Positions 9,139-59,807 are shown, numbered from the stretch's first letter. The stretch is 59,807 bases of DNA from a virus (IMGVR_UViG_3300045988_174840), one strand, 5' to 3'. Program-made: numbers and translations. The notes: generated by a model not told the origin, from the letters alone.

Positions 9139-9150
9139 AGGAGGCTAATA

Positions 9151-16219: not shown

Positions 16220-17248
16220 ATGGCTTTAAGTAGAAAAGATTTATTTACATTAGCTAAAACCGTAGCAAAAGCTAATCCTTCTTCTCAGGTTGCTTATTCT
16301 TTCGGTAATGAAAAATTTAGCTATTCAGATTTAAACGATACATTGAGAAACGAATTAAGAGAAATCGCGGGAACATACGCACTTTATCGCGAAAATAAGA
16401 ATACAATTTTTGCTCTTATGGAAGAGACTATTGACGATATTCTTCCAAAAAAAGTATTAGAGCAGTATGGTCAATTTGCTGAAATTAAGACATTTAGCCA
16501 GGGAGACAAACCTGTATTCACTCAGAGAATTACGGTTGCTTCAAAGAGACGTGCAAAACAATTTATTACAAAAGTTGGATTAGCAGGTATTTATGAAGTA
16601 TTCAAACTGGATGGTAAATCTTATGAAGTTCCTACAAGTGCTTTTGGTGGAGCTGCTCAGATTGGATTTGAAGAGTTCTTAGATGGACGTATAGATTTCG
16701 CAGATGTTCTTGACATTGTTATGGAAGGATTAGACGAAAGCGTTTATCTTGAAATTGAAAGAGCTTTGAAAGGTGCTGTAACTAATTTACAAGCTAATAA
16801 TAAAACCACCCAAGGTTCTTTTATAGAAGCTGAAATGGATAAATTGTTAGCTGTAGCAGATTCTTATGGACAAGCTACTATTTATTGTACGTATGAATTC
16901 GCAGCTACCATGGTACCTGCTGAAGGTTGGGTTTCAGACGCTATGAAAGACCAGAAATGGAATAATGGTTATTTAGCAAATTATAAAGGACATAGAGTAA
17001 TTGTTTTACCTCAGTCTTATGAAGATGAAACTAATAGTAAAAAAGTTATCGACCCATCTTATGCATGGATTATTCCTACTGGCGGAAATGATAAACCTGT
17101 AAAAATTGCTCTTGAAGGACAGACTATCGTTAGAGAAATTGAAAATGCTGATATGTCAAGAGAAATTCAGGTTTACAAGAAAATGGGTGTTGCTGCAATT
17201 ATTACTAATAATATTTGCGTATATAGAAACACTGGTTTGACTCAATAA
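16220..17248 (+). CDS. major capsid protein (candidate)
   Basis: 342 aa with a strong AAGGAGGA ribosome-binding site. A strong terminator follows immediately, as is typical for a high-copy structural gene. Confidence 0.55.
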   Translation: MALSRKDLFTLAKTVAKANPSSQVAYSFGNEKFSYSDLNDTLRNELREIAGTYALYRENKNTIFALMEETIDDILPKKVLEQYGQFAEIKTFSQGDKPVFTQRITVASKRRAKQFITKVGLAGIYEVFKLDGKSYEVPTSAFGGAAQIGFEEFLDGRIDFADVLDIVMEGLDESVYLEIERALKGAVTNLQANNKTTQGSFIEAEMDKLLAVADSYGQATIYCTYEFAATMVPAEGWVSDAMKDQKWNNGYLANYKGHRVIVLPQSYEDETNSKKVIDPSYAWIIPTGGNDKPVKIALEGQTIVREIENADMSREIQVYKKMGVAAIITNNICVYRNTGLTQ

Positions 17249-27000: not shown

Positions 27001-30000
27001 CTTAGAAGCCCAAAATGCGGCGTTGACAACACAGCTTGAGCTAAGAAAGAAAGTTGCAAAAGCTGAGGAAAAGAAAACAGTAGAAGCCGCAGAACAAGCC
27101 GCAAAAAAAGACGCATATGGTAAAGAACTTGAGACAGCATCGGTAGACGCGTCAGTAGATAGGAGCCAATTAGCAGAAGTATCTGGAATAAATATTGGAA
27201 ATGGAAGGAAAGTTCAAGATATACTTCTTGATGATTCTGTTGCTAAGTTTCAACTAGGCGATGAGAAAGCTTATGAGGAATATAAAGCTCAAGCAGAATA
27301 TTCTATTTCCGAAATTAGAGATCTATTAGCGAAAGAGAATACTGGAATTAATTATGACCAGAGAGAAGCTTTAAAGGCTTATGTAAGTAATTTAGAATTC
27401 ACTCTGTCTTCAGTAAATAAAAAATGGGAAAATTCTTCTGGTGAAGTTTCTAAAAGTTTAACAGACGCGTATAATAACGCTTTAAAACAGATTCCTCTGT
27501 TAGAAGAAGCTGGTTCAAAATATGTTGACTACTATTATAATATTGTTGAACAATATTATAGAAAAACAGATACATTAGGTTTTGCTACTAAGCAAGCTTT
27601 CGGTGAAGCTTTAAGTGAAAATAAAGAAGCTTTTGATAAAATGAAAGCAGAGATAGAAAAAGAAGGCGGAATTGATGTATTATTAGCGGATGATGGTAAA
27701 AAGCTACGAAATGTTATAGGTAGTAATGCTTTTGAATCTTTAAAAGAATACTCTACTCAAACAGGACTTTCTTTAGAAATTTTATTAAAGAGTCTTGATG
27801 AGATTGATGCTAAATATGATGATATTAAAGATGGGGCATCTATTGCGGCTAATACAGAGAAAAAAGAAATTGAAGAATTAACAAAAAAACAAGAACAGTA
27901 TCAAGAGGAATTAGATAAAAAATCTGTAATTAGTGAAATTTCTACTCAATTAGCTAGCGAAGGTAGCTTAGATAAATTAAGTAAAAGTAAAGAAGGAAAG
28001 GCTACTTTAGAGACTTTTAATCAGATGCTAGAGGAAACCGCAGGCATTTATAATAAAAATGTAAGTGCGGCTCAAGAGTTTGAAGAAGCTGCTGCTAGAG
28101 GCGTTCTTGGACAAATAGAATATTTAGAAGATTTAAGAGAAGCAGATTCTAATTATTATACTGAAGTTATCGAGTTAGAAAAACAAAAATTAGAAGCGGA
28201 ATTAGATTCTAATAAAAAAATATTAGAAGGATATGCACAGAGAAAAACTGAATTAACTATGCATATCAATCAGCTAGAGGATATAAGAGAGAAAGAAGGT
28301 TCTCTTAGCAAAGAACAACTAGATGAACTTAGTAATGCTCAAGTTGAATTGGAGGCAGTTACAGAAAAATATAATGAATATCAAAACGCTGTTTCAGATA
28401 CAAAGAAAGAGATAGAGGATACCGATTGGGAATTAAAAATTGATTTAGCTGGTGCGGAAGAAATTTTAAGTATCGGTGATTCTATTTTAAGTGAATCTGA
28501 TAAGATTAGAGAAGCAGCAATGATGATTGGTGAAGGATATGTTGTTGCGTCTGAGGATGCTAAACAGTTAGCAGAAGTTTTTCCAGAAATTATGGAAAAT
28601 GCGGAAGTGTTAGCAGATGGACAAATTCAATTAAATCAAGGTGTAGTTGAAGAAACTTTAACTGGACAGCAATCTATTCTTCATGGAGATGTAACAACCG
28701 CTTTGTCTAGAATAGATAGTCAGGTTAAAATTTTAACTGCACAAAAAGAAGCGGCTGAGGCAGAGTTAGAATTATGGCAATCTGTATATCAAGGAAAAGT
28801 AGATATGGACTCTCAGGCTTTGGAAGCTATGGCGGGAGGACAGAAATCTTTTACTGAGTATTTGGTTGATTTAGGTGTTAAAGAATCTGATGCAGATAAA
28901 GCAGTTAAAGAAGCTATGGCGGGAAACTACGATGAGTTAGCTCGAATAGCAAAAGATGCTTCTATCAATATGGATCAAAACCTTAGTCAGGGTATTCAAG
29001 ATGCAGCCAATAACTCAAAGACTAATTTAGGTGCTATCGTTACTAACTTTATGGCTGTTATGAGAGCTGCTCAAGAAGCGGGAAAAGCTGCATCCGCGTC
29101 TATGAATGGAAAGGTAGCAGGAGAATACATTTCTCCAGATAGTCTCTCTGGCGGAGGTTGGTCACAGAATTTTACCGGAAAAACTCTGGACGCAAAGTTT
29201 AAAGGTGCTGAAAACAATATAACCACAACAACAAAAGAGTTTGCGGCAGATAAAATTAATGAAGCTAAAATAAGAATAAATAAGTATACAAAAGCAATAT
29301 CTGAAATGGAGGCTTTAGCGTCAAGACTTCGTGAGAATGAAGCTAATTCTAATTTAGCTCTTGAAAGTGCAAAAGCAGGGACTGGTGGTTCAACGCCTTT
29401 TGAGAAAGATAAGAGCAGTAAAGGCGGAAAAGGTAGCGGAGGAAAAGGTGGTTCTTCATCAGATGCACAAGCTGACAAAATAGATTTATTGCAAGATGAA
29501 TCTGAAGTATATCACGACATAGATCTTGAAATTAAAAATATCACAAGAGATTTAGATGCTTTACAGAAAAAACAAGAAAAGCTTACAGGTAAAGAATTAA
29601 TTAAAAATCTTCAAGAGCAGTTAGACTTATTGGAAAAACAAAAGAAAGCTTATGGTGAAAAGATAGAAGTAGCCGAAATTCAGTCAGGAGCATATAAATC
29701 TGCATTAAAACAAGAAGGGGTTACTTTTGATGCAGATGGAAATATAACCAATTATTTTAATATTATGAAAACCAAGCTGGATAATGTCAATAAAATGATT
29801 ACTAAATATAATGGCATGTCCAAAGCAGAGCAAAAGAAATATAAGCAAACGGTTGAAGATGCTAAAAAGGATTATGAGAATTTTAAAAAGATTCTTAGCA
29901 AATATGAAGACTTAAAAGCAGATGAAAAAGAAATAAAAAAGCAACAGCAAGAGGCAGAAGATAAGGCTACAGAAGTAAGGATTAAGAAGTTTACCTTAAA

Positions 30001-32665: not shown

Positions 32666-35600
32666 GTGTATAAGTTGAGTAATAACATAGAAAGCAATAT
32701 TTGCAAAGCTATTGATATTATTGTAAAGAAAGCGGTAAATCAAGCTAGCTATGATAAAACAATTCAAGCAACAATTCTTTCATGTGTAGATGCTACTATT
32801 GGTAAATACAAAGTAAAGTATCAAGATAGCACTTTTTATGCGTACTCAGGAAACTCTGATACCACTTATACAGATGGTTCTAATGTCTATATACTAATTC
32901 CTGGTAACGATATGAAAAAAGATAAGACTATTTTAGGTACAACGAAAAAACTAGGTATTAACTATATAGCTACTTCAGAAGGAGAAGAGAGTTATGAACC
33001 TATTGGAAATAACTGTATTTCTTCATCTATTACTTTTGGATTAAGTTCATATTCAAAAGTTGGACAAGAGAAAATCTTATATAGCAGAGATTTTCCAAAT
33101 AAGAATTTAATAAAAGTAGACAGTGCATCTGCGGAAGAGTATATAAAACAATCTGCAAATTTAATTTGTAGCATGAAAGTAAGAACATCTTTACCGCCAG
33201 AGCAACAAAGTAGGGGTAATTATGGTATTATTTTTGCATTAGATTTTTTAGATAATGCTACTAATAAAACTATAACAAGAAATTATGTTATAGATGTGGA
33301 TAAAATGACAGGTAACCCTTATAAACTAGTTTATTCAACTAAACAATATGGTATTTTTGATATAGATGGAATAAATTTCAAATCTATAAAAGAAATTAAA
33401 TTATTCTGTTATAATTTCCCGAATAGCAAGGAAAATTATATTGATGATATTTTTATAGAAGATTTGCAATTTTATGGAGTTGCAAAACTTAGCGAGGAGG
33501 ATATTAATGGTTGTAGTTTAAGTATCATAACTCCGCAAGGTAATTTTTTCAATAAAAATGCGAATAAAAATGATTATAAAAAGTTACAGGCTCAAGTTAG
33601 AGTCAAAGGAAAAGTTATAGATAATAATTCTCAAAAACTTCCTTTCTATTGGTTTGTAGAAGATATTAATATTACATCGAAAAGTTTAGGTTATCATAAG
33701 TATGGCGGTCAGGGCTGGAGATGTTTAAATAAGTATAATATTATTCAAGACGCGAATGAAGAAAATGGAGAAGCCGCAATAGTAGAATATGTAGCTCTTG
33801 ATTCTGAGTACAAGGTCTATTTTGAAGATGTAATTGCGAAAGAGACTAAATATAAATGCGTTGTTATTTATGATGAGAGTGCTTTAGAAAAACAGATTGT
33901 GATTAAAAATTATAATTCTAATTATCAATTTTCATTAGTATCTGATTTAGGAGAGCAGTTTTATTATGATGTTGGTTATCCTACTTTAACTTGTTTAATG
34001 AATGGAGAACAAATAAAAGATACGGGTAATTATGAATTCTCTTGGATTACTGTTGATAGCATAGGCGGTTTTAGTAATCTTGAAGAGACGACCGCGGAAA
34101 ATGAAGAATATAATAAGGCAGTTAAGAATAAAAAAAATTTAGAAAAAGCTATTAGTGATGGTACAAAGTATTACGAAGTTGTAAAGGATGAATTAGACAG
34201 ATATAATGCTGTTATAGAGAAATATAATACAATAACAAGAGTAGAAAAAGATAAGATTATTCATATAGATGTACGCTCTATTACACGAAATAAAACTTAT
34301 AAATGTGCGGTATATTATATTAGAAATGGAAATAAAACCTTCTTAGGTTCAGCATCAATCACTTTAACTAACTCCTTAGGCACAGAAGGTTCATATACTT
34401 TAGTTATTAACAATGGTATACAAACTTTTAAATATAATGAAAATGGAATTAGCCCAGCTTCTAAGTCATTGGAAAAGCCTATCATTTTACAAGCTTTAAC
34501 TTTTACTATTTATAATAATTTAGGTCAGCCTATTGATGATGAAGTGGCTAAGCACTGTAAAATTAAATGGATTGTTCCTTCTAAAAATACTATGTTAAAG
34601 ATTTCATCAGATTATAATAATGTTAAAAAAGATGAAGATTTAATCAATAATACAACAACATATAATAATATTACAACTTTGACATATGGTATTGAAGATA
34701 AGTATTCTGTTAATAAAGTTAGAAATAATATTCAATTAGCAGTAGAATATAAAGAGATGAATTTAATTGCGGAAACTAACTTTACTTTTGTTAAAGAAGG
34801 AGAGTCTGGAACAAATGGGACTGACATTGTATGTAAAATAGTTCCAAATGTTGAAGATGGAAAACCTATTCCAGTATATCCAATTCTTACTAAAAGTGGT
34901 GCTACTTATAGTTTTAATTTTGAGAAGAAAAAAAATGCAGAATCAAATTTTAAAATTGAAATATGGAAAGATGGAGAAATAGTTTTTAGCGGAAGTACTA
35001 CGTCAGGTAATACGACAGTAGTTTGGAGCGTATTAAAAAATAAATATGGACTTGATTATGGGAATTCTAGCGGTACAGATTATTCTTTTATACAAATTAA
35101 TGCTCAAAATGGAAATGTTACTGAAGCGGTTACTGGAAAAGAGCCAAAAGAGCCTTTGGCTTGGGGTCGCCTAGGAGTTGCTAATATTATAAAAGCTACA
35201 GTAAAATATGATGGAGTAACTTATTATGTTACTATGCCAATCATAGTTGCGGAAATTTATGATTACAACTATAAAGTTAATTTAAAGGATTATACTGGTT
35301 TTAGGTATGTTATTTATAATGCGGATGGAAGGAAACCTAAATATGATAATGCTACTCCTTTTACTTTAGAAGTTAAGAAACGTATGCAAGAAGCTAATGG
35401 CTATGTGGATATTAGCACCAATTCAAAAACTAATTATACATGGGATAGAAAAGGAAGCATTTTAGAATATCACCAGAGTTCTGGAACTAATGATTCAACT
35501 TGTTGGGAAGAAAAATCTTCTCTACATTTAATAGATATTAGTCCAGAAAACATTTCAATAAATCAGCATAGTTATAAACCTATTGATAATTATGATGGAC

Positions 35601-37279
35601 AATGTGTAAATAATGGTATAGTGTGTACCATAAAAGATGAAAATAATAACAATAAAAAAGTTGCAGATATCTATATACCAGTACATTTATATTTGAATAG
35701 ATTTAATAATGCGGCTATAAATGATTGGGATGGTAATAGTGTTAATGTAAATAGCAATGGCGGATTTATCCTATCCCCGCAAGTTGGAGCAGGAATAAAA
35801 GATAATAGTAATGCTTTTACAGGTATTGTTATGGGAAAAGTACAAGAAGCTAATCAGAATAATATTGAGGTAGGATTATTCGGATATAATAAAGGTCAAA
35901 GAAATATATTCTTAGACGCGGAAACGGGTAAAGCTATTTTTGGTGTTAATAATGGCGGACAAATTATTTTAGATCCTTCTGATGGAAAAGCTGAAATAAA
36001 GTCTGGAAATTATAAAGATGGAGTAGGTGGCATGTTAATTGATTTAACTACGCCAGAAATTAAATTTGGGACAGGCTATTTTAGTGTTAATAGTAGTGGC
36101 TATTTAACAGCAAAAGGTGGAGGAAGTATTGCTGGATGGAATATTGGTGAAAATACTCTATCTAAAGGTAGTGTAATTTTAAGTTCAGACAATTCTGAAC
36201 AAACTAACAAAGCTTTTAAAGTGGGAAATGTTTTTAGTGTAGATTATAATGGATTTTTAGTAGCTCAACAAGCAACCATAGGTAGTGGAACAGCCAAAAT
36301 TACTGTGGGTATGAATCAAACAAAAGCATACAGTGCTATTTATAGTGGGGATAAAAATGGATTACAAGTAAAGGAAAAAGGCTTTTACTTAGGAACAAAT
36401 GGAATTGGGCTTGGAACGACCGAAAAAGTAAAAAGTAAAATAGTAAGCAAATTTCAAGTAGATGATGAAGGAAATTTTTATGCCGCTTCAGGATGTATTG
36501 GTTTTGGAAAGGATCCTTTAGAAATAACAAGTAATGGTTTGTGTAAAGGTAAAACAACCTATAATGATAATAACGAAGGAGTTTATTTAGGGTCGAATGG
36601 AATTGGATTAGGTGCGAAGAATTTTACAGTTAATGCTGCTGGATATTTAACTGCAAAGAGCGGAAAAATTGGAGGCTGGGAAATTAGTGACTCTAGTTTA
36701 GTAGGAACAGAGAAGAAAAAAGATAAGGAAGAAAAGAAAATAACTTTAAATCCAGCAACAGGCATAAATTTTAATGATCTTTTTACAGTTAATCAAAATG
36801 GATACTTAACTGCAAAAAGCGGAGAGATTGGAGGCTGTACTATAACAGGTAGTGGCATCTCTGGCTCTACTAAAGGAGGAGCATCTTGGAGCATACAAGG
36901 AGATGGCACAGCTAGCTTTACTAATGTATTAATAAATGGAAAGTCAATTATATCAGCAGGTACTCAAATTGGCACGGAATATGATAGTAATGGAAATGTT
37001 TCAAAACAATCAGATTTGCCTAAGTATATAGGAAGTCAATCTGGGGGAGCTTTGTCATCTAATTTAGGTAATAATGATTATGTAAAAAATAGAGCTTCAG
37101 AATCAGATCAATATGAGGTAGGTTGGTTTTTAGGAATTGTACAAATAGACAAAATATCTCTTGATGTAAAAAATAAAACTGCATCATTATGGTATAAACG
37201 GATGCCTTTTTTAAGTAAAGGATCAGTGTCAAGCAGTGATGCCCATGGATTAGCTTTTGATTATATAGGAGAAAAATAA
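32666..37279 (+). CDS. large distal tail/baseplate protein (1537 aa) with a thrice-repeated C-terminal module
   Basis: Follows the tape-measure gene. Three ~30-aa modules F(S/T)VNxxGYLTAK(G/S)GxIGG(W/C)xI recur at ~36085, ~36610 and ~36790. The start is probably TTG at 32675 after AAAAGGAG. Confidence 0.5.
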   Translation: MYKLSNNIESNICKAIDIIVKKAVNQASYDKTIQATILSCVDATIGKYKVKYQDSTFYAYSGNSDTTYTDGSNVYILIPGNDMKKDKTILGTTKKLGINYIATSEGEESYEPIGNNCISSSITFGLSSYSKVGQEKILYSRDFPNKNLIKVDSASAEEYIKQSANLICSMKVRTSLPPEQQSRGNYGIIFALDFLDNATNKTITRNYVIDVDKMTGNPYKLVYSTKQYGIFDIDGINFKSIKEIKLFCYNFPNSKENYIDDIFIEDLQFYGVAKLSEEDINGCSLSIITPQGNFFNKNANKNDYKKLQAQVRVKGKVIDNNSQKLPFYWFVEDINITSKSLGYHKYGGQGWRCLNKYNIIQDANEENGEAAIVEYVALDSEYKVYFEDVIAKETKYKCVVIYDESALEKQIVIKNYNSNYQFSLVSDLGEQFYYDVGYPTLTCLMNGEQIKDTGNYEFSWITVDSIGGFSNLEETTAENEEYNKAVKNKKNLEKAISDGTKYYEVVKDELDRYNAVIEKYNTITRVEKDKIIHIDVRSITRNKTYKCAVYYIRNGNKTFLGSASITLTNSLGTEGSYTLVINNGIQTFKYNENGISPASKSLEKPIILQALTFTIYNNLGQPIDDEVAKHCKIKWIVPSKNTMLKISSDYNNVKKDEDLINNTTTYNNITTLTYGIEDKYSVNKVRNNIQLAVEYKEMNLIAETNFTFVKEGESGTNGTDIVCKIVPNVEDGKPIPVYPILTKSGATYSFNFEKKKNAESNFKIEIWKDGEIVFSGSTTSGNTTVVWSVLKNKYGLDYGNSSGTDYSFIQINAQNGNVTEAVTGKEPKEPLAWGRLGVANIIKATVKYDGVTYYVTMPIIVAEIYDYNYKVNLKDYTGFRYVIYNADGRKPKYDNATPFTLEVKKRMQEANGYVDISTNSKTNYTWDRKGSILEYHQSSGTNDSTCWEEKSSLHLIDISPENISINQHSYKPIDNYDGQCVNNGIVCTIKDENNNNKKVADIYIPVHLYLNRFNNAAINDWDGNSVNVNSNGGFILSPQVGAGIKDNSNAFTGIVMGKVQEANQNNIEVGLFGYNKGQRNIFLDAETGKAIFGVNNGGQIILDPSDGKAEIKSGNYKDGVGGMLIDLTTPEIKFGTGYFSVNSSGYLTAKGGGSIAGWNIGENTLSKGSVILSSDNSEQTNKAFKVGNVFSVDYNGFLVAQQATIGSGTAKITVGMNQTKAYSAIYSGDKNGLQVKEKGFYLGTNGIGLGTTEKVKSKIVSKFQVDDEGNFYAASGCIGFGKDPLEITSNGLCKGKTTYNDNNEGVYLGSNGIGLGAKNFTVNAAGYLTAKSGKIGGWEISDSSLVGTEKKKDKEEKKITLNPATGINFNDLFTVNQNGYLTAKSGEIGGCTITGSGISGSTKGGASWSIQGDGTASFTNVLINGKSIISAGTQIGTEYDSNGNVSKQSDLPKYIGSQSGGALSSNLGNNDYVKNRASESDQYEVGWFLGIVQIDKISLDVKNKTASLWYKRMPFLSKGSVSSSDAHGLAFDYIGEK

Positions 37280-37546
37280 ATGAGTAATAATAACAATAAT
37301 ATAGATCTAAATATTCAATGTTATAAATTTTCACAAGATTTAATAACATTAATAAGCAATAGCGGTTTGCCTATTACCGTAGCTTATTTAATTTTAAAAG
37401 ATACTTGTCAACAAGTTGAAAAAACAAAAAATAATTATTTATCAATGCTATCTTCAGAATCTATAGAAAAAGTTTCTGTGCCTTTAAGTATTAATGAAGA
37501 AGATAATCAAGATAATAAAGAAGATTTAGAAGAAAAGGAGAATTAA
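37280..37546 (+). CDS. hypothetical acidic small protein (88 aa)
   Basis: Track ORF with a TAAATG stop-start overlap with the upstream gene. Confidence 0.4.
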   Translation: MSNNNNNIDLNIQCYKFSQDLITLISNSGLPITVAYLILKDTCQQVEKTKNNYLSMLSSESIEKVSVPLSINEEDNQDNKEDLEEKEN

Positions 37547-37547
37547 T

Positions 37548-37931
37548 ATGGTAGATGTATTAATGGTATTTTTAAAATTAGTTATTATGGTTGTTGTTCC
37601 AGTAGCAACATCAGTTTTAACATTCTTATTAAAAACTTATCTTGAAGAACTAATTAACAAAAATGTTCAAAATGAAACTGCGGATGCTCTAAAGAAAGGA
37701 CTAAATATTATTTTAGATTCAGTTAATTATGTTCAACAGACATACGTAGATAATTTAAAAAAAGAAGATAAGTTTACCGCGGAAGCTCAGTCTAAAGCTC
37801 TTCAAAGTGCGAAACAACGTGCTATTGAATTAATGAATACTGATGTCCAATCCGCGATTGAAGCTAGTTACGGTAACTTAGATACTTATGTTACTACAGT
37901 AATAGAAAGTTTAATAAAGAAAAATAAATAA
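37548..37931 (+). CDS. small membrane-anchored protein (127 aa, one N-terminal transmembrane helix)
   Basis: Hydrophobic stretch VLMVFLKLVIMVVVPVATSVLTFLL followed by a charged helical region. Confidence 0.4.
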   Translation: MVDVLMVFLKLVIMVVVPVATSVLTFLLKTYLEELINKNVQNETADALKKGLNIILDSVNYVQQTYVDNLKKEDKFTAEAQSKALQSAKQRAIELMNTDVQSAIEASYGNLDTYVTTVIESLIKKNK

Positions 37932-37969: not shown

Positions 37970-39370
37970 ATGGATAAAATTAAATCAGCAAAAATATCTT
38001 TAGATGATGGTGCTAGTTATAGTGAAGAAATTCCTATTGGGGCAGAAGCTTCTAATGTAGACCTACCAGATGGAACTAACTTAGGTGAATATTTAGAAGA
38101 TATGAAAATTGCAAATGAACTTAAAGCAAGTTTAAAATCCGCCAGATTACGTAATTATCAAGGAGAAGTTCCTGTTGGAGCGAGAAGCTTGACCATTGGA
38201 TTAAACAATAGGGCAGTTGGAGAAGATTCTTTTGCAGAAGGAAAAGCAACTTATGCAGTAGGTAATTTTTGTCATGCTGAAGGTAATGGTACTACTGCGG
38301 GTTTCAAAAATACTGCTACTGGTAAAACAACTTATGCAGCACATGCTGAAGGCGGTAATACTCAAGCTTTAGGTATGTACTCTCATGCACAGGGATATAA
38401 TACAATAGCTAGAGCGGATATGTCTCATTGTGAAGGATTCTGTGGAGAAGCAAAAGGTACCGCCTCTCATGTAGAAGGGCTTGGAACTATTTCTCACGCT
38501 TCATATCAACATGTACAAGGAAAGTATAATATAGAAGATGTTGAAAATAAATATGCCCATATTGTAGGTGGTGGTACAGGTAGCTCTGAAAATCAAAGAA
38601 AAAATATTTATACTCTTGATTGGCAAGGTAATGCAGTATATTCAGGAGATGTAATCATAACTGTTGGAAATGAACAAATATTTCTCTCTTCTATAATGAA
38701 TTTTCTTCAACCTGGAGCCGCAGCTCATAATTCTATATACAGAGGAAAATTTTTAGGAGATACTATTACTTCAGAACAAGCTTCTGCAATTAGTGATGGA
38801 ACTTTTAGAGATTTATATTTAGGCGATTATTGGACTGTTAATGGAGTTAATTATAGGATAGCAGATTTTGATTATTGGATAAACAAAGGCTTTCCAGAAG
38901 TTGATAAAACAAAAGTTCATCATCTTGTTATTGTTCCAGACAGTTATTTAGCTACTGGGCAGATGAATTCTTCCCTTACTACCAATGGTGGATATATAGG
39001 TTCTGGAATGAAAACGAATATATTAAATACCGTTACATCAAATTTACCAGATACTTTTAAATCAAGAATACTATCTCGTAGAATTATGGCTGAAGGGACT
39101 TGGACTGTCGCTACATTAGATTTGATGAATGAAGTGATGGCATACGGTTGCTATATTTATACCCATAACAATAATAAACAAACCTCTGACAATAGGCAAT
39201 TAAATTTATTTCGTTTCAATTCAGGTTTACTAAATATCAATAGCGATTATTGGTTGAGAGATGTATCAAGCGAAACTAGGTTTTGTTTAATTTCTCAATA
39301 TGGAGATGCGAGTAGAGATGATGCTACTAGCACTTATGGCGTTAGACCTGTTTTTGCGATAGGTGGTTAA
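37970..39370 (+). CDS. tail fibre protein with YadA/Hep_Hag-like short beta-helix repeats
   Basis: Reiterated xHAEG, SHAQG, SHCEG, SHVEG and QHVQG heptad-like repeats (FAEGKATYAVGNFCHAEGNGTTAG...). Confidence 0.5.
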   Translation: MDKIKSAKISLDDGASYSEEIPIGAEASNVDLPDGTNLGEYLEDMKIANELKASLKSARLRNYQGEVPVGARSLTIGLNNRAVGEDSFAEGKATYAVGNFCHAEGNGTTAGFKNTATGKTTYAAHAEGGNTQALGMYSHAQGYNTIARADMSHCEGFCGEAKGTASHVEGLGTISHASYQHVQGKYNIEDVENKYAHIVGGGTGSSENQRKNIYTLDWQGNAVYSGDVIITVGNEQIFLSSIMNFLQPGAAAHNSIYRGKFLGDTITSEQASAISDGTFRDLYLGDYWTVNGVNYRIADFDYWINKGFPEVDKTKVHHLVIVPDSYLATGQMNSSLTTNGGYIGSGMKTNILNTVTSNLPDTFKSRILSRRIMAEGTWTVATLDLMNEVMAYGCYIYTHNNNKQTSDNRQLNLFRFNSGLLNINSDYWLRDVSSETRFCLISQYGDASRDDATSTYGVRPVFAIGG

Positions 39371-47974: not shown

Positions 47975-47983
47975 TAAAATGCT

Positions 47984-48030
47984 AGCCAAGAATAATATTT
48001 ATTGTTATTCTTGGCTATTTTTTTGTTTTG
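47984..48030 (+). terminator. strong Rho-independent terminator ending the morphogenesis operon
   Basis: Hairpin AGCCAAGAATAATATTTATTGTTATTCTTGGCT followed by ATTTTTTTGTTTTG. Confidence 0.75.
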
Positions 48031-48181
48031 TACAGAATTTTAATATATGCTTTTTATTTTCTTACTTTAGGAGCCAAATTTACTTTTTAAATAAATTTTA
48101 ATGAAAATTTCGGGCAAAGTGTAAAATTTATTACCAGCTATTTTTCATATACCATTGCAAGGGAAAGGAGTGAAAAGTAAA

Positions 48182-48664
48182 ATGTATCAAAATTTACAAC
48201 AACTGCAAAACAGTCCTTATTACCAATACCCTTATAATCAACAATATCAACGCCTGGCACAATTAGAACAACAACAACAGATGAATACTCCATATAATAC
48301 TATGGTTTCTCAAAATCAAAGTTTTTTAAAAGGTAGACCAGTAGTATCCATGGAGGAAGCCCGTGCCGCACAGATTGATTTAGATGGTTCGTTGTTTATT
48401 TTTACTGACATAGGAAATAAGAAGATTTATACTAAACAGATAAATCTTGATGGAACTGCTACTTTGAACACTTACTCTCTTGTAGAAAATGTAGCACCAA
48501 TAGAAAGTTATGTCACTAAAACTGAATTTGAAAAAGCCATCTCATCAATTAGGGAAGAAATGGTTAAAAAGGAAACATTAGAAAGGAATGTAGATAATGA
48601 CTCAATTAAACAGCAACAATCTGGAACAACTAAAAAAGCAGTTTGCAAACCATCCTCTTTTTAA
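48182..48664 (+). CDS. protein with a Q/Y/N-rich prion-like N-terminus (~160 aa)
   Basis: Track ORF 48155.. starts at TTG; the ATG is at 48182. The N-terminal 50 aa read YQNLQQLQNSPYYQYPYNQQYQRLAQLEQQQQ. Confidence 0.45.
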   Translation: MYQNLQQLQNSPYYQYPYNQQYQRLAQLEQQQQMNTPYNTMVSQNQSFLKGRPVVSMEEARAAQIDLDGSLFIFTDIGNKKIYTKQINLDGTATLNTYSLVENVAPIESYVTKTEFEKAISSIREEMVKKETLERNVDNDSIKQQQSGTTKKAVCKPSSF

Positions 48665-48794
48665 TAGAGCAGAACAAATGGTATCTGGAAAAACGTCAGA
48701 AGAGATAGAACAAATTGCGAAAAATTTATGCCAGCAAAGAGGAATTAATTTTGATGAAGCATGGAAAATGTTTCAACAACAATTTAGATTTTAG
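48597..48794 (+). CDS. small hypothetical protein (65 aa) overlapping the upstream gene by 68 nt in another frame
   Basis: Track ORF with a GAAAGGAATG-type ribosome-binding site. It is unclear which overlapping frame is expressed. Confidence 0.35.
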   Translation: MTQLNSNNLEQLKKQFANHPLFNRAEQMVSGKTSEEIEQIAKNLCQQRGINFDEAWKMFQQQFRF

Positions 48795-48848
48795 CGTACA
48801 AGGCTTTTATGGAAAACAAATTATAAATTATAAAAAAGGAGATTTATT

Positions 48849-49598
48849 ATGGGAATGATGAATGATGGATTAAGTATCGCTGATGCTATGGCTTTAGCAA
48901 AAGATGGAGATTGCACTGGATTCGGCGGAAATGGTACTTGGATTTGGGTATTTTTCTTATTTTTCTTGTTAGCTTGGGGCGGAAATGGCTTCTTTGGTAA
49001 TAGAAGTGGAGTAGATAGTGCCGCAGTTCAAGGAGCTTTAACAAGAGCAGACTTATTTGAGGGATTTAACAACAGCGACGTTCAAAGACAATTACAAGGA
49101 TTATCTAATGGACTTTGTGATGGATTCTACGCTCAAAACACAACTATGTTAAATGGTTTTAATACTGTTGGTAGAGAACTTTGTCAAGGTTTTGGCGGAG
49201 TTAATAGTAATATGAGTTTAGGTTTTGCAGGAATTCAATCTGCAATTAATGATGCAAAATTTGCGGATCAGCAATGCTGCTGTGAAACGAATCGCAACAT
49301 AGACGCGGTTCGCTATGAAAACTCTCGTAATACTTGCGATATTGTAAATGCAATTCGTGAAGATGGAAATACTACAAGAGCGTTAATCAATGCTAATACA
49401 ATGCAGGATTTAAGAGATAAATTAGCGGATAGAGATAGAGATCTTATGACTGCAAATTTCCAACTAAGTCAACAGGCTCAAAGTGCTAATTTGATTGGAA
49501 CATTAAGACCTTATCCACAACCAGCTTATATTACTTGCTCTCCATATGAAGCTTCCTTATTAGGAAACAGAATTTATAATGGATGCGGCTGCAATTAA
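48849..49598 (+). CDS. Cys-rich protein with one transmembrane helix (249 aa); function unknown, possibly lysis- or membrane-related
   Basis: GFGGNGTWIWVFFLFFLLAWGGNGFFGN transmembrane/glycine-zipper segment. The C-terminus is CCCETN...GCGCN. Confidence 0.4.
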   Translation: MGMMNDGLSIADAMALAKDGDCTGFGGNGTWIWVFFLFFLLAWGGNGFFGNRSGVDSAAVQGALTRADLFEGFNNSDVQRQLQGLSNGLCDGFYAQNTTMLNGFNTVGRELCQGFGGVNSNMSLGFAGIQSAINDAKFADQQCCCETNRNIDAVRYENSRNTCDIVNAIREDGNTTRALINANTMQDLRDKLADRDRDLMTANFQLSQQAQSANLIGTLRPYPQPAYITCSPYEASLLGNRIYNGCGCN

Positions 49599-49650
49599 TC
49601 TTAATAGAATACGGGCGGAGATTCTCCGCCCAAGAAAGGAAATGTAAAAT

Positions 49651-50100
49651 ATGGGATATACAATAAACAAAGCATATCAAAAAAGCGTATTAAATGCTGT
49701 ATCTACTGCGACTGAAACCTTAACAACAGGACAACTTTTACCATTTACTAATATCAATATTTTAAATGGATGCTCTATCAATTATATTGCTGGTTCCTCT
49801 TCAATTCAACTAAAGAAACCAGGAGTCTATTTAATCAGTGTAGATGCTACCGCCGCAGAATCTGGAACCGCGGGAACTGTTACTATGCAATTACAGAAGA
49901 ATGGAGTTAATGTAGAAGGGGCAAAAAGTAGCTCTAATTCCGCGGCAGTAACAGACTTTAATGGAATGTCTTTTTCAACTGTTGTCAAAGTTTTACCTTC
50001 TTGTGCTTCTATTGATAATACTACTACTTTGACTGTATTAAATACTGGCGTAGGAGCTATTTATTCTAATACTAATATAACTGTAGTTAAATTATGCTAA
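49651..50100 (+). CDS. small T/S/N-rich beta-sandwich-like protein (149 aa), resembling BclA-C/C1q-like exosporium or fibre-tip domains
   Basis: Composition and C-terminal pattern ...TTTLTVLNTGVGAIYSNTNITVVKLC. Preceded by GC hairpin GGGCGGAGATTCTCCGCCC. Confidence 0.3.
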   Translation: MGYTINKAYQKSVLNAVSTATETLTTGQLLPFTNINILNGCSINYIAGSSSIQLKKPGVYLISVDATAAESGTAGTVTMQLQKNGVNVEGAKSSSNSAAVTDFNGMSFSTVVKVLPSCASIDNTTTLTVLNTGVGAIYSNTNITVVKLC

Positions 50101-50115
50101 TAAGGAGGCTATATT

Positions 50116-50661
50116 ATGGCAGAAATAGTATCTCCAAAAACAATAGTGGAAAATACGAGCGAAGATATAATGATTAAGATGATGGAGCAAAATTTAGAAG
50201 GAGTAATGTTTCATTTATTTGAAACAGACTTATATGATTTATTAAAATTACCTGGATTTAAGGCTTTACATCATCACCAATCACAAGAAGAGACTGAAAC
50301 TCTTGAACTTTTAAAACATAAATATATTGAGAAATATAAAAAATTTCCAATCTTAAAAACAAAAAGTATTGACCGTTGGGAAGAAAACGAGGATTTATAT
50401 AAAGATTTATCTGAAGAAAAAATTATTTCTTTAGTGAAAGAATCTATGAAACAATACGCTGATTGGGAAAGCGAAGTTTTAGAACATCTATTACAATGGA
50501 AAAGAAATGTAGAAGATAGAAAGATCGTGCATAAAATGATAGAAGATGTCATGCAAGAGATAAAGCATATAGAAACATTAATGGACATCTTAGAAGAACA
50601 TGATTATAATTATCAATGTATCTGTGAAATCTCTGATTACCTTAGTCGTAGATATAAATAA
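50116..50661 (+). CDS. hypothetical helical acidic protein (181 aa)
   Basis: Track ORF with an AAGGAGG ribosome-binding site. Confidence 0.4.
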   Translation: MAEIVSPKTIVENTSEDIMIKMMEQNLEGVMFHLFETDLYDLLKLPGFKALHHHQSQEETETLELLKHKYIEKYKKFPILKTKSIDRWEENEDLYKDLSEEKIISLVKESMKQYADWESEVLEHLLQWKRNVEDRKIVHKMIEDVMQEIKHIETLMDILEEHDYNYQCICEISDYLSRRYK

Positions 50662-50662
50662 T

Positions 50663-50692
50663 GGGAGCTATTTAGCTCCCATATTTTTTTAT
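50663..50692. terminator. bidirectional terminator between convergent gene blocks
   Basis: Hairpin GGGAGCTATTTAGCTCCC flanked by an A-rich and a T-rich tract (ATATTTTTTTATT). Confidence 0.7.
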
Positions 50693-51183
50693 TCCCAAAT
50701 AATTTTATTATTTAAAAGAATATATGCATAACCTATTCCTATAGCATCTGCTTCATCATCATTTACTTTAATATTAAATTTTTCTTCTACAAATCGAATA
50801 TCTTCAAGCTTTAATTCTTCTCTTTTGATTCCTTTTCCTGTGCGGATTCCACATGCAGAACGCCATTCACTTGGGTATAAATATTCAATTTTTATTTGTG
50901 GAAAATTATCATGTACAGTAAAAGCTATCGCTGCTTGAAGCCACATCAAAACACGATGAGTTTGAATATTTTGCAATCCATTTTCTGGTCTAACTTCCTC
51001 CAAAATAATTTTATCTATAGAATATTTCTTTAAAATTTCAATTAGTCCTTCTATCATTTTTTTTATTCTTGCGATAACATCTTTTGAAGAAGCCGTAATA
51101 CAAGTATGATAAGTTAGTTTATTATTTTCAAAAATAGCAAATCCGCTACTTTTAGAACTTGCATCTATTGATAATATGTTCAT
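50689..51183 (-). CDS. RuvC-like Holliday junction resolvase
   Basis: N-terminal ILSIDASSKSSGFAIFENN (catalytic Asp motif). ~164 aa, as expected for phage/A22-type resolvases. Confidence 0.65.
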   Translation of the reverse strand: MNILSIDASSKSSGFAIFENNKLTYHTCITASSKDVIARIKKMIEGLIEILKKYSIDKIILEEVRPENGLQNIQTHRVLMWLQAAIAFTVHDNFPQIKIEYLYPSEWRSACGIRTGKGIKREELKLEDIRFVEEKFNIKVNDDEADAIGIGYAYILLNNKIIWE

Positions 51184-51211: not shown

Positions 51212-51240
51212 ATTATAACATATTATTCTAACTCTGTCAA
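51212..51240 (-). promoter_or_regulatory. consensus promoter (TTGACA-17-TATAAT) for the resolvase gene
   Basis: Reverse complement reads TTTGACAGAGTTAGAATAATATGTTATAATTTAG, followed by an AAAGGAGA ribosome-binding site. Confidence 0.6.
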
Positions 51241-55905: not shown

Positions 55906-57322
55906 TTATTCTCCTTCCATACCATATCTAACATGCTCTAGTTTCATATCTGAACCATTGACGTCAATAATCTTGTAGAGCTGATGGGTAGGGGTATGTT
56001 TATACGATTTAGTCTGAAATGTATCTCCACGCCTAAACCCAGTACACATTACTTTTGTTCCTCTTTGAAACCAGCCTTTTTCCATAACTTTTTTAGTTCC
56101 ATCTTCTTGCTTTTCAGAAATTTGTCTCCCAAACATAGCAAAGTAATCTTTTGTAAATTTTACATTAACAACTCCAGAAGTTGTTAATAATGATATTGAA
56201 GAACGAGCATCATTTTTACTGATTACAGTGCCAATGATTTTATAAGTCTTATAAATAGGGATTTCTTTTCCATTTCTTTTGAAAAAATAATCTACAACAG
56301 GCTCTTCGGGTAATTTAGAAAAATCTGAAATTCCATACTTTAAAGTATCAATATTTATTAATTCATGTGGATGATAATAAAAACATAAGCTTTCCATTTC
56401 CCACGCGGAAATATTTCCTTTAGCATATTTATTCCAAGAGTCAAGAAATAAAGCCTCATTAAATTCTTTTAATACTGTCTGTTGATTCTCTTTAAGCCAA
56501 TCTCTAGCTCTATCCATGCCTTTTTGATACTTTTTATCCCATTTGTTTTGTAAAATACAAACGCATCCGTTTATCACTTCAAGGTCTTCCATATCGTATC
56601 TTTGATTGTAGAATTTTTCACAAGCATCATCAAAGACATAATATTTTCCAACTTTTTTCTCAGTTTTTAGATACTTATTAAAGAAAAATAATCTTTTCAT
56701 ACTATCTAAAGAAGGTGGAATTAAGTCTTTTTGAATTAAACCATTAAAGTTTTGTAGCGTTAATTTCTTTTTTGGTTCACTAACAACAGACAGATAATAT
56801 ATCATTACAAGCACTCTTGGTTCAACATTTAATTCTTTTGCCCATTCTAATTCCAGTTTATCAAAAGCTCCGCTCTTTATTAAGGAAATCATTGCAGATT
56901 TATTTAAAGGACATCTTATCATAAAGTCTTTAATGCTTTTATATGGTCTACCAGAAAAAATCTGCTCAATAATTGGTGCACCTACATTACTCAATGCTTT
57001 CATTCCAAAAAGAATTTCGTTGTTTTCAACATCTGGCTTAAAGCTATAGTCAGATTTATTTATATCAACTAAAGAAATTTTTATTCCTCTTGATAAAATA
57101 TCTCCAATAGCCTTAGCTATTTTACTATAATCCGTAGATTTTTCTTTCTTTTTACTTTCTTCTGTTTCTTCTTCATTTTCAATATTATCTTCTTCTAAGG
57201 CTCCACTATTTACAATTAAACACGCGGTATTCCAATAGATAGGATTCCATCTTGTGGCTATGTATATAGTTTGAAATCCTATGAAAGAGTAAGCCAGGGC
57301 ATGTATGCATAATTTAAAATTA
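55906..57322 (-). CDS. dnaE: DNA polymerase III alpha subunit (DnaE-type), C-terminal exon or segment
   Basis: The open frame extends upstream of track ORF 55906..57003 to the stop at 57334. It encodes ...FNFKLCIHALAYSFIGFQTIYIATRWNPIYWNTACL (cf. DnaE GYGFNKSHSAAYALVSYQT..HYPAEFMAA). The HhH region ALSNVGAPIIEQI...SLIKSGAFD and a C-terminal OB-fold follow. Confidence 0.7.
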
Positions 57323-58539
57323 CTGACTATTTTTTACAGACGTTGTAGTGAGATTTTGGCTTTTCTCTTGTCTGCACACTATTTCCCAAAACGTATCAAT
57401 AGTTTCAGTACTCCCCGTCTAACCAGGGATAGTCGATACAACATTTTTCTTTTAATAGATTTATTTATTATCTCTAAGAGGGTATTTATATTTTTCTTTT
57501 TTATGAGAACGTCCTGCGTTAATATTTTTAATTGTTGCATAGCTTTTATTCCATTTTTTTGCGATATCTTTTAAAGATAAATCTGTTTCTAAAATATCTT
57601 TTATAATACCTTGAATCCAGATTTCATTTTTAGCTTTATTACCACCTTTATCACAAAGAGGGTAGTTATCCTTATCACTATAAAAATATTTTCCTGTATT
57701 TATCATAGATAAAAATCCAGCTGATTTAATTCCAAAATCTTCTTGAATTGTTTTATATTTTTCTCCGCTTTTAATTCTATCTTTTATTTCTCTAATTTCT
57801 TTTTGAGAAAAGCGGCTTTTAGAATTTTTCTTTAAAGGATAATCAAACTCTTCATTAAAATAATTTGTTCCAGTATTTATATTAACTAAAAACGTTCTTT
57901 TTAACTTAGGAAAATAAATTTTTTCAATATCATCATATTCTTCATCATTCATTAGACGATTTTGGATATCAATAATTTCTTCTTTTTTAAAGAGTTTAGA
58001 TCGGTTTAATTTTTCTTCATACGTTAAAGGTTTTCTTTTATATCCTTGTCCGCCTAAAGTAATATTATATCCATTTTCATCTTTTAAAGAATGATAATAT
58101 TGAATAAAATAAATTTCTCTTTCGTCAATATATTCTTGAGATTCTCCATCAGCAATCTCTTCAAGAATATCAAAATTAAAATTATCCCAACCATATTTTC
58201 TTATGGCTGCGTGAAATGGCAAATTATAGCCAGAAGTTTTTTCATTAAAAGACTCACTTTTATGTCCATTTTTTCTTTTTTGAACATTATTAGTTTGTCC
58301 GATATAAATTTTACCATTTGTTTTATTTGTAAATTTATAAATATAGTACATAATATTCTCCTTATACATTGTTTTACTATTCTCATGTATAACTGAAAAA
58401 TACTATACCTCTATTAAAGAAATTTGTCACGAGATTTAACCCTCGTTAGCAATTAAAACCATATTTGCCAAATATGTAAATGTTTTAATTACCCCACTGA
58501 TAAGTGGTTAAGTGTGTAAGCACCATTCACACAATGCTA
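57323..58539 (-). other. ~1.2-kb intervening sequence interrupting dnaE; candidate group I intron carrying a homing endonuclease gene
   Basis: The upstream frame ends in-frame with ...GYSF then SIV-stop. The downstream frame has no nearby ATG or ribosome-binding site. The proposed junction, with the 5' exon ending in T and the intron ending in G, restores GYSFNFKLCIHALAY. Confidence 0.5.
57461..58351 (-). CDS. GIY-YIG homing endonuclease, free-standing inside the dnaE intervening sequence
   Basis: N-terminal YYIYKFTNKTNGKIYIGQT...KRKNGH (GIY-YIG motif). Perfect AAGGAG ribosome-binding site 6 nt before the second ATG at 58351; track ORF starts 6 codons earlier. Confidence 0.8.
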   Translation of the reverse strand: MYYIYKFTNKTNGKIYIGQTNNVQKRKNGHKSESFNEKTSGYNLPFHAAIRKYGWDNFNFDILEEIADGESQEYIDEREIYFIQYYHSLKDENGYNITLGGQGYKRKPLTYEEKLNRSKLFKKEEIIDIQNRLMNDEEYDDIEKIYFPKLKRTFLVNINTGTNYFNEEFDYPLKKNSKSRFSQKEIREIKDRIKSGEKYKTIQEDFGIKSAGFLSMINTGKYFYSDKDNYPLCDKGGNKAKNEIWIQGIIKDILETDLSLKDIAKKWNKSYATIKNINAGRSHKKEKYKYPLRDNK

Positions 58540-59807
58540 AAGCTATATCCCATCTGCGGACCTATGCCATATTTCCATACATAGTCTCCGAGTTCTTTTC
58601 TTTTAGCTTGTTCAATAACCTTCTTTTTCAATTCTGGAATTTTACTCATTTGTTTTTTACCAACAATTTTTCTCGCGGTGTTGGCTTCAGATAACTTAAA
58701 ACCGCAAATATCCTTATCCATTAACATACTCATTAATTGTTCTTGACTTGGCGGAACACCATAAGACTTTAAGAAATAAGGTTCTAATGTTTTCATCTCT
58801 TGAGGAGATAACCCCTCTCTTCTCATTTCTTGATACCAAAGATCAATATTTTTTTTATATCTTACATATTTTTCCATTGGCGTTTCTTGACCTTTTTCAC
58901 TAGTCATAAGTCTCATTAATCCATTAGCATCTGACATTTCAATTATTGAGGCTGGCTTAATTTTTTTTGCAGCCTGACTGCCTACATCGCTATCAAATTG
59001 AAAAATATTTAAAACTGAGTTGTTTTGCAGTGCTTTCCAACATTTTTTATCTTCGATAGGTAAAACACTTGGATGAAAATATTTTTCATACACTTCTTTT
59101 AAAGATAAATCTGATTCAATTTCATTATTAGCCTGTAGTAATTTAATTGTTTCTGCTAATTTATCCTGGACTTCAGTTACTAAGAAGTCATATTTTGTCA
59201 TACCTGCTGCTTCGCACATATGAAGATCCCATTGCGTAATAATTTCTCCTTTAGGAGTCCGCATAAAACATCCAAATTCATATGGGTCTTCATCAAAAAG
59301 GATTACTCCAGAAGCATGAGAACTCCTTTTGTTTACTAACCCTTCAATAGCAATCATAATATCTAATAAGCCAGGATATTTTTCTACCTCATTAGTAAAC
59401 ATCTTAATAGGCTTTCTATCTTTATCTGGGTTACCATTAATGGCATCTGATAAAGACCATAAAAAACCTCTTTCACTTGGAATTAAAGAAGATAAAAATT
59501 GAGCAGTGTCAACATCAATTCCGTCTGGATACTCTTCACTTCTATATCCGCGACAAGCAGTTAAAATAGTTGATCGAGTACCTTCAGTTCCAAAAGTGGC
59601 TATCAACGTACATCCTAAATTTTTTCGAGATAAAACATCAATATCTTTTTTAAAATTTTTTCCGCGTTCTTCCTTTATTTTCTTTAAAATTAAAGGTCTT
59701 TTACTTGGACTTAAATCTAAATCTATATCTCCAAGCTCTATACGCTCTTTATTTAAATATCTCCAGAAAGGAAGCTCCCATTCAATCGGATCTAGTTGAG
59801 TAATTCC
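58540..59807 (-). CDS. dnaE: DNA polymerase III alpha subunit (DnaE-type), upstream exon or segment, 5' partial (continues beyond the window)
   Basis: Track ORF 58527..59606 (IATFGTEGTRSTILTACRGY...) stays open in the same frame to the window edge at 59807. It ends at the conserved GYGF position. Confidence 0.7.

Follow-up and report, generated by a model that had tools for sequence, protein, structure and literature searches.

Five plus-strand open reading frames (ORFs; p1-p5, 48182-50661), bracketed by terminators, follow the tail-fibre genes in a viral sequence of 59,807 nucleotides (nt; IMGVR_UViG_3300045988_174840), which is referred to below as the window. Together they are a self-contained, horizontally mobile and apparently separately transcribed accessory operon of the moron type, and very probably not a lysis system. 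We tentatively propose, with a probability of roughly 0.4 for the statement as a whole, that this moron-type operon would encode a complex anchored in the membrane by p3, with an exclusion-type role.

From the sequence alone, the cassette had earlier been read as occupying the place normally held by holin and endolysin genes, and as being either a highly divergent lysis system or a moron or lysogenic-conversion cassette (hereafter the sequence-only reading). The anatomy fits a moron, with terminators on both sides, a conserved promoter-like leader, varied neighbours, and sites at prophage ends or next to recombinases, and to that extent the second possibility stood. The first did not. The cassette is judged not to be a lysis system because the window has a separate holin, other carriers have ordinary lysis genes of their own, p1-p5 match no muralytic or holin profile, the p1-p3 core appears dispensable, being lacking in phages of the phiCP13O type, and the neighbours vary.

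The analysis covered the window and about 7 kb of flank on each side, i.e. some 75 kb of a genome of about 136 kb. Homologues of p3 were found by tblastn and hidden Markov model (HMM) searches, and 169 loci (88 fetched first and 81 later, from viral contigs, genomes, annotated phages and assemblies) were analyzed with iterated local HMMs. For the selection tests the window was compared with two sibling contigs of about 99% identity (L009 and L004) and with a relative, L012.

Transcription signals and selection

The features of the cassette and its borders are as follows (aa, amino acids; RBS, ribosome-binding site).

47983-48030, plus strand: terminator, a 15-pair hairpin (47983-48017) and a T-run; closes the structural (tail-fibre) operon, setting the cassette apart from it
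48076-48181, plus strand: 5' region of p1 with RBS, promoter-like; includes a stretch conserved with L012
48182-48664, plus strand: p1, 160 aa, rich in Q, N and Y
48597-48794, plus strand: p2, 65 aa, small and helical; its gene begins inside p1, near the 3' end, in a different frame
48849-49598, plus strand: p3, 249 aa, core protein of the module
49612-49632, plus strand: hairpin in the p3-p4 spacer, G+C-rich, 9 bp, just upstream of the p4 RBS; from the terminator scan of the minus strand
49651-50100, plus strand: p4, 149 aa, a stand-alone domain like the BclA C-terminus and C1q
50116-50661, plus strand: p5, 181 aa, acidic, helical and distantly ferritin-like; a variable add-on outside the core
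50661-50682, both strands: bidirectional terminator (9-pair hairpin, a T-run on either strand) that also serves the convergent RuvC-like gene
50689-51183, minus strand: RuvC-like gene, converging on the cassette terminator

The strong operon terminator that the sequence-only reading had located at 47984-48030 is thus present as a hairpin followed by a T-run, and a terminator hairpin is found at the same upstream position in the relatives L012 and L163. Downstream of it, the leader stretch CCAAATTT...AATAAATTTTAATGAAAATT..GGGCAA..TAAAATTTATTAC is kept in L012 despite a protein identity of only 60-76%. A 20-mer from this stretch has a single occurrence in the window. The leader gives only weak sigma-70-like matches and is a putative promoter. 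The first gene starts at the ATG at 48182, which is preceded by GGAG and fits a 160-aa database protein exactly; a mechanical ORF call would begin at a TTG at 48155. The hairpin in the p3-p4 spacer is kept in L009 with a change in the loop, and L012 has another G+C-rich hairpin at the same spot, so that between the window and L012 the structure is kept and the sequence is not. This hairpin could be a stabiliser or an attenuator. On the minus strand, a perfect extended sigma-70 promoter (TTGACA, 17 nt, TG, TATAAT; 51212-51240) lies upstream of the RuvC-like gene.

All five ORFs predicted in the post-terminator cassette proved to be real genes, and the substitution patterns indicate that all five are under purifying selection. 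The ratio of non-synonymous to synonymous substitution rates (dN/dS) was 0.0-0.3 across p1-p5, and 0.15-0.32 in the comparison with L012. For p3, 26 synonymous and no non-synonymous changes were counted relative to L009, and 40 and 2, respectively, relative to L004. Synonymous divergence between the window and these two phages was 0.17-0.26 in p3 and p4 (48849-50100) and 0.03-0.04 in p1. The excess in p3 and p4 suggests a recombination or gene-conversion tract, possibly tied to intron homing.

The membrane-type protein p3 and its proposed partners

From its N-terminus, p3 consists of an acidic tail, one aromatic transmembrane (TM) helix flanked by GFGGNG and WGGNG, a series of amphipathic 11-residue "GF" repeats (residues about 75-130), an invariant CCC motif, a long conserved helix (146-219, about 75 residues), the proline-rich PAYITCSPY and a cysteine-rich C-terminus. 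With 10 cysteines, which is also the median for the family, and the glycine-flanked hydrophobic helix, p3 agrees with its earlier description as a Cys-rich protein with a GFGGNG...WGGNG membrane segment. The repeats (49073-49250) read GLCDGFYAQNT, TMLNGFNTVGR, ELCQGFGGVNS and NMSLGFAGIQS, following the pattern xxΦΦxGFxxxx, and form an almost uncharged amphipathic helix adjoining the TM segment. Residues 75-120 have a hydrophobic periodicity of 3.65, equalled by none of 500 shuffled sequences. Lineages of p3 differ by insertions or deletions of exactly 11 residues: that of the window has one extra repeat, and L012 and P0016 have an 11-residue insertion elsewhere.

Profile searches of the PDB with p3 gave nothing, as did a fold search in BFVD at E<=0.001, and p3 has no family in Pfam, NCBIfam or PADLOC; its PHROG, 16490, is annotated as of unknown function. 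The idea that p3 is a bacteriocin with a double-glycine leader, raised by a leader-like LS..D..AL helix, was rejected: the motif lacks conservation, no GG cleavage site is aligned, and a C39-ABC transporter is missing.

In sibling phages (L011, 6435-7620; L170, 17397-19213; L115 and L120) the p3 gene is split after "...QQCC" by an insertion of about 1.1-1.2 kb, which holds a 247-aa GIY-YIG homing-endonuclease-like ORF and a group I intron. The intron matches Rfam RF00028 with E=1e-9 and 44.5 bits, just below the gathering score of 50. The RefSeq record from Megamonas funiformis also has an intron-split p3, with the exon products WP_440972060 and WP_440972058. The window copy has no intron, the homologous site being at about 49280. 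Free-standing endonuclease ORFs of HNH/NUMOD type are found between p3 and p4 in L118, L145 and L152, and before p1 in L165; these ORFs in or near the cassette are a second sign of homing elements using the conserved p3 region. In L003 (Dulem virus 39, about 8715-9371) and in L165 the first cassette is followed, a few genes on, by a second and shorter paralogue of p3 (about 218-221 aa).

The sequence-only reading had called p1 a Q/Y/N-rich, prion-like protein; as far as composition goes, 28 of its first 50 residues are indeed Q, N or Y. This disordered N-terminus leads into a small conserved beta-plus-helix domain (about 49-100), with the motif KGRPV..EEA.AAQID.DGS...F.D...KIYTK...LDG....Y, and then into a long helix. 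A profile search of the PDB with p1 gave no match, and heptad periodicity in residues 113-143 was not significant. The overlapping 65-aa ORF, p2, is a genuine gene, because its family (131 of the 169 loci) recurs at a constant position, invariably between p1 and p3 and overlapping or abutting the end of p1; relative to L009 it has six synonymous changes and one non-synonymous change. Both p1 and p2 are rich in glutamine. On direct reading of the sequences, p1, p2, p4 and p5 have no signal peptide at their N-termini and no lipobox was seen in them. Profile and fold searches assigned no function to p1, p2 or p3.

The C1q/BclA-like nature proposed for p4 holds at the level of the family. A profile of p4 homologues matches 9H38, the F-BclA C-terminal domain, over nearly its full length (E=4.8e-7) and BclA itself at about 1e-3 (1.5e-3), and Pfam BclA_C is matched by 7 of 13 homologues (best E=2.5e-7); the window sequence alone remained below threshold. 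The crystal structure 9H38 shows the C1q-like tip at the C-terminus of F-BclA, which belongs to a spore appendage of Bacillus thuringiensis (PMC12357932). The size of the p4 family (about 140-150 aa) is that of one C1q/TNF-like head of this kind (BclA_C, PF18573; PDB 9H38 and 1WCK), and p4 is presumably trimeric. Unlike BclA, it has neither the collagen-like GXY stalk nor an exosporium-targeting N-terminus (its N-terminal extension is only about 20 aa), it has conserved cysteines, its gene adjoins that of a membrane protein, and it is encoded by phages of non-sporulating hosts. The p4 family is present in 118 of the 169 loci; in many other cassettes the slot holds an unrelated Cys-rich beta protein (c4).

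The acidity noted for p5 is borne out by an isoelectric point of 5.1. Its profile (A10) matches more than 20 prokaryotic ferritin chains (PDB 1S3Q, 1VLG and 2JD6 among them), aligning over profile positions 18-155 with all four helices (A-D) and sharing a motif of the type ..FD..GL.GF......Q..EE. However, the E-values are marginal (about 1e-3) and the canonical di-iron ligands are not clearly kept: H33, E118 and E148 are invariant and H52 is found in at least 90% of sequences, a ligand pattern that is only partly recognisable. No Pfam ferritin match was obtained for p5. The family is found in 25 of the 169 loci, and a p5-like gene is present in phiCP13O without p1-p3; p5 is loosely attached to the module. 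Judged by these searches, a known family can be assigned to p4 (BclA_C) and, weakly, to p5 (ferritin-like), but to none of the other three proteins.

The module in other phages

The p3 family is large, with more than 7,800 matches among 90% clusters and 2,378 clusters at 50% identity (E<=1e-3). Besides the counts given above, p1 is present in 161 and p3 in 167 of the 169 loci, and the order p1-p2-p3-p4 is constant in the first 88 loci and in the later 81. The p3 family has no Pfam or NCBIfam entry, only PHROGs of unknown function, and in the literature no paper was found that describes the module. Carriers include the cultured Clostridium perfringens phages XP41-N3, 17DYC, CPD1 and HMD-PC1, phages of lemur and rodent guts, and the Crassvirales genome cr116_1. 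By contig binning, which is imperfect for metagenome-assembled genomes, they extend to Clostridia, Negativicutes, Bacteroidales, Treponema, Gastranaerophilales, Bacilli and Mycoplasmatota. Even without the binned contigs, the isolates together with the crAss-like phage cover both monoderm and diderm hosts, which argues against a role specific to sporulation or to the cell wall.

Many phages have an extended layout. It starts with a gene of about 80 aa for a helix-turn-helix (HTH) protein of the GerE/sigma-70 region 4 type, followed by p1; the p2 slot holds p2 or a variant (c9), p3 stands next, and the p4 slot holds p4 or c4. Next comes p5, a DUF7841 protein (c5) or RGG/Tyr-rich proteins, and the last slot is filled by c6, a SprT-like protein with an HExxH motif, or a protein of unknown kind. 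A small papain-like protein, c6 has an invariant Asn...Asp-Cys...His...Asp set; its profile search of the PDB gave nothing, and that with c4 only a weak match to a surface-protein repeat.

The cassette lies after tail fibres, after lysis genes, in early regions, or beside an integrase, a recombinase or a prophage end; in prophages the last two sites are frequent. Among 74 representative loci the immediate neighbours are tail proteins, HNH endonucleases, AgrB, a few wall hydrolases, host genes and dUTPase/RuvC, with integrases or recombinases adjoining the cassette in 8 of the 74. AgrB-like genes (best E=1.4e-8) lie directly upstream in 3 of the 74, so that agr-type signalling genes borne by phages may share this hot spot.

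Presence and absence of the core can be seen by comparing 17DYC with phiCP13O. Both flanks are 94-98% identical, but in phiCP13O unrelated DNA stands in the place of p1, p2, p3 and c4. In phiCP34O, 9O, 39-O and 26F, too, p1-p3 seem to be absent, judging from the coverage pattern. The comparison indicates that the p1-p3 core is dispensable for plaque formation in C. perfringens phages.

The window itself has a G+C content of about 30%. A long structural operon on the plus strand (7981-47974) ends in the tail-fibre genes, and the cassette converges with a minus-strand block for replication and nucleotide metabolism (RuvC-like, dUTPase, NrdD/NrdG, guanylate kinase and DNA polymerase III alpha). 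M. funiformis is the likely host: p1 is 100% identical to the RefSeq protein WP_440972061.1 (160 aa, M. funiformis), and the p1 and p3 proteins of the window phage are listed in one RefSeq assembly of this species. Contigs with the phage measure 135-139 kb. M. funiformis does not form spores; it is a Firmicute of Gram-negative type, and its G+C content is 31.5% (PMC8638592).

Some further observations concern the rest of the window. The phage is distantly related to the phAss-1 group (about 136 kb), the 342-aa product of 16220-17248 being 52% identical to a phAss-1 protein, and unlike phAss-1 it reads through in the standard genetic code. The tape-measure protein (24041-32572) is very long (2,843 aa, with a PhageMin_Tail domain). 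The protein encoded after it (32666-37279) has 1,537 aa and no family match. On the minus strand at 55906-59606 the gene for DNA polymerase III alpha is split into a piece with PHP, NTPase and finger domains and a 365-aa HHH_6 piece, and between them lies a GIY-YIG ORF of 296-302 aa (57461-58369). A search with Rfam at E<=0.01 found no group I intron in this split gene.

Proposed function, alternatives and significance

In the model that we favour, the one aromatic helix of p3, with its glycine-rich flanks, would fix the protein in the cytoplasmic membrane, while the uncharged segment of 11-residue repeats would run along the membrane surface. The long, conserved and Cys-rich helical domain would self-associate into a platform, on which p1 (with its disordered tail, novel beta domain and helix), p2 and p4 may dock. 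Firmicutes avoid cysteine in exported proteins; since, in addition, the partners have no signal peptide, the assembly would most likely be on the cytoplasmic face. The module is found in monoderm and diderm hosts alike, so that its target is probably the cytoplasmic membrane itself. The assembly might serve exclusion or defence, shielding the infected or lysogenic cell from competing phages. Such a role, unlikely as it is when taken by itself, is favoured because of the moron anatomy, the hot-spot sites, the dedicated HTH gene, and the combination of a conserved core with variable effectors.

Several points weigh against this model. No result places p3 in a membrane or shows an interaction among the cassette proteins. 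The AlphaFold2 (AF2) model of p3 contains helices only and is of low confidence (predicted local distance difference test, pLDDT, 53; predicted template modelling score, pTM, 0.19), the charge distribution of p3 gives no decision on its topology, and heptad periodicity in residues 146-219 is not significant, which leaves a coiled coil unproven. The exclusion functions known so far are mostly single genes, and the module is also carried by apparently virulent phages. Many copies stand directly after tail-fibre genes, a position that fits a late or virion role equally well, and the C-terminal half of p3 is 40-70% identical across phyla, which would be unusual for a protein aimed at a variable competitor. 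PADLOC gave no similarity to known exclusion or defence proteins: p1, p3, p4, p5, c4, c5, c6 and c20 had no match in PADLOC-DB, p2 only a match to Cas3b at chance level (E=0.011) and the HTH protein only generic ones. A known defence system was accordingly dropped as a candidate.

The lysis question turns largely on what lies elsewhere in the carriers. The sequence-only reading had recognised no lysis signature anywhere in the window. This was wrong for the holin, since the ORF at 37548-37931 (plus strand) matches Phage_holin_6_1 with E=4e-10, above the Pfam cut-off, and phrog_13712, a holin family, with 1.2e-21; no endolysin domain was found in the scanned ORFs of the window or in the flanks of about 7 kb. 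Nor did phmmer searches with three lysins from other carriers find a match for an endolysin of the window phage. The holin is of the LL-H type and stands amid tail and fibre genes, with neighbours at 37280-37546 and 37970-39370. The latter encodes 466 aa with YadA-head-like repeats and a weak DUF6273 match, and is a fibre rather than a lysin.

A module related to lysis, in which p3, large and with a single TM helix, would act like a holin or disrupt the membrane and the other genes would regulate or assist lysis, supplementing the canonical holin, is improbable on this evidence. It would suit the location at the end of the late operon, the missing endolysin in the 75 kb examined, and the build of p3, with one TM helix between glycine-rich flanks, a membrane-proximal amphipathic repeat and a large C-terminal domain with conserved cysteines. 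In cr116_1, moreover, only 1.2 kb separates the cassette from the holin and L,D-carboxypeptidase genes before it, and it lies downstream of holin (Phage_holin_4_1) and GH25 genes in L005-L008, and next to wall hydrolase or holin genes (amidase, M15, M23, 3D) in a minority of loci. However, the same loci show that carriers already have complete lysis cassettes: cr116_1 and L005-L008 have the genes just named (in the latter the cassette abuts a prophage end or a serine recombinase), and XP41-N3 and 17DYC have an amidase and a holin. Early or lysogeny genes surround the cassette in C. perfringens phages and Dulem virus 39, phages of the phiCP13O type lyse their host without p1-p3, and searches of Pfam, NCBIfam and PHROGs gave no muralytic, holin or spanin (Rz/Rz1) profile for p1-p5. 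The cassette should not be labelled a lysis module in the annotation of the window.

The same position after the tail fibres could point to virion-associated proteins, either a decoration or short fibre with p4 as its cap, or proteins that are ejected and of which p3 would insert into a membrane, assembled late in the cytoplasm. Fibre tips are typically BclA_C/C1q-like heads (PMC12357932), the cassette is oriented as the tail-fibre genes and follows directly upon them here and in many loci, signal peptides are absent, purifying selection is strong, and p3, like many highly conserved phage genes, is a target of a group I intron and homing endonucleases. On the other hand, a strong terminator stands between the structural operon and the cassette, several phages have it in early or lysogeny regions, and near-identical viable phages are without it. 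It is also portable among sipho-like, podo-like, crAss-like and large phages, which would be unexpected for parts fitted to a particle, so that this alternative is improbable, too. Very improbable is a self-assembling, cross-linkable layer or fibre on the membrane of infected gut anaerobes, resembling an exosporium or endospore appendage and built from C1q-like heads, Cys-rich connectors, Q-rich substrates and, in extended versions, a papain/transglutaminase-like enzyme. The best PDB match of p4 is a spore-appendage tip domain, p3 and c4 are rich in cysteine and p1 and p2 in glutamine, p5 is ferritin-like, and extended cassettes contain the protein with the Cys-His-Asp triad, RGG/Tyr-rich proteins and the GerE-type HTH. 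Taken singly, however, each of these resemblances is generic, no family match to Ena (DUF3992), F-ENA DUF4183 or ExsY/CotY was found in p1-p5 or c4, the module is carried by phages of Bacteroidales and Treponema, and the likely host is non-spore-forming (PMC8638592). A cassette linked to sporulation, an idea prompted by the likeness of p4 to BclA, the cysteines of p3 and the GerE-like regulator, was rejected as a general explanation for the same reason, and because the module is found in Crassvirales and in contigs binned to Bacteroidales, Treponema and Gastranaerophilales. It is highly doubtful, finally, that the module is a membrane-anchored organiser of replication or assembly sites, or interferes with host division, with the disordered Q/N- and M/Q-rich tails as scaffolds. 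A membrane anchor, long helices and low-complexity partners would fit, and recombination or replication genes adjoin the cassette in C. perfringens phages, in Dulem virus 39 and in this window. That adjacency is inconsistent across loci, though, the module is dispensable, DNA-binding and NTPase domains are lacking, and a C1q-like partner would have no obvious part to play.

Among known systems, morons and conversion or exclusion genes (HK97 gp15, lambda lom and bor, and Sie2009/Ltp of Firmicutes phages) are mostly single genes of narrow host range. The cassette resembles them in being a unit bracketed by terminators, present or absent in close relatives, placed at an operon end or at an attachment or recombinase site, and encoding a membrane protein. 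It differs from them as a module of 4-7 genes in fixed order, with 40-70% identity in phages across bacterial phyla, and p1-p5 have no sequence similarity to known moron or exclusion genes. What is new relative to the described morons is thus a multi-gene, fixed-order, cross-phylum module, whose families are already in PHROGs without a function. The T4 holin T (class III) and the i-spanin Rz are large single-TM lysis proteins. Similarly, p3 has an N-proximal TM helix followed by a helical domain of about 200 aa with conserved cysteines and is encoded near the end of the late genes; unlike them it has no profile match and no outer-membrane lipoprotein partner, occurs in monoderm hosts alongside ordinary lysis genes, and is dispensable. 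The phi29 proteins p16.7 and p1 are non-essential, membrane-anchored replication organisers with self-associating helices at the inner membrane face. In contrast to them, p3 of the cassette lacks a DNA-binding domain, is much larger and Cys-rich, has at least three dedicated partners, and shows no sequence relationship.

It would be a far-reaching, if rather improbable, outcome that the p1-p2-p3 core with its swappable heads and enzymes is an unrecognised class of phage machinery, independent of envelope type. This class might take either of two forms: a membrane-anchored, exosporium/ENA-like assembly in infected gut anaerobes, cross-linked through cysteines and possibly by transglutaminase, or a new membrane effector system in phage-phage competition. 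If true, it would be a new class common to phages of Firmicutes, Bacteroidota, Spirochaetes and Melainabacteria.

Neither a characterised relative nor a Pfam family or fold match is available for p1-p3, and still the module is one of the more widespread conserved gene sets of gut phages. The module crosses host phyla and phage morphotypes. A function that serves in monoderm as well as diderm hosts, and is freely exchanged among phages, would close a real gap in the annotation of gut viromes. Cultured C. perfringens phages with the module (XP41-N3, 17DYC, CPD1 and HMD-PC1) and without it (phiCP13O and phiCP39-O) offer natural plus/minus pairs, and the function of the module could reveal a new way in which phages act on the cytoplasmic membrane.

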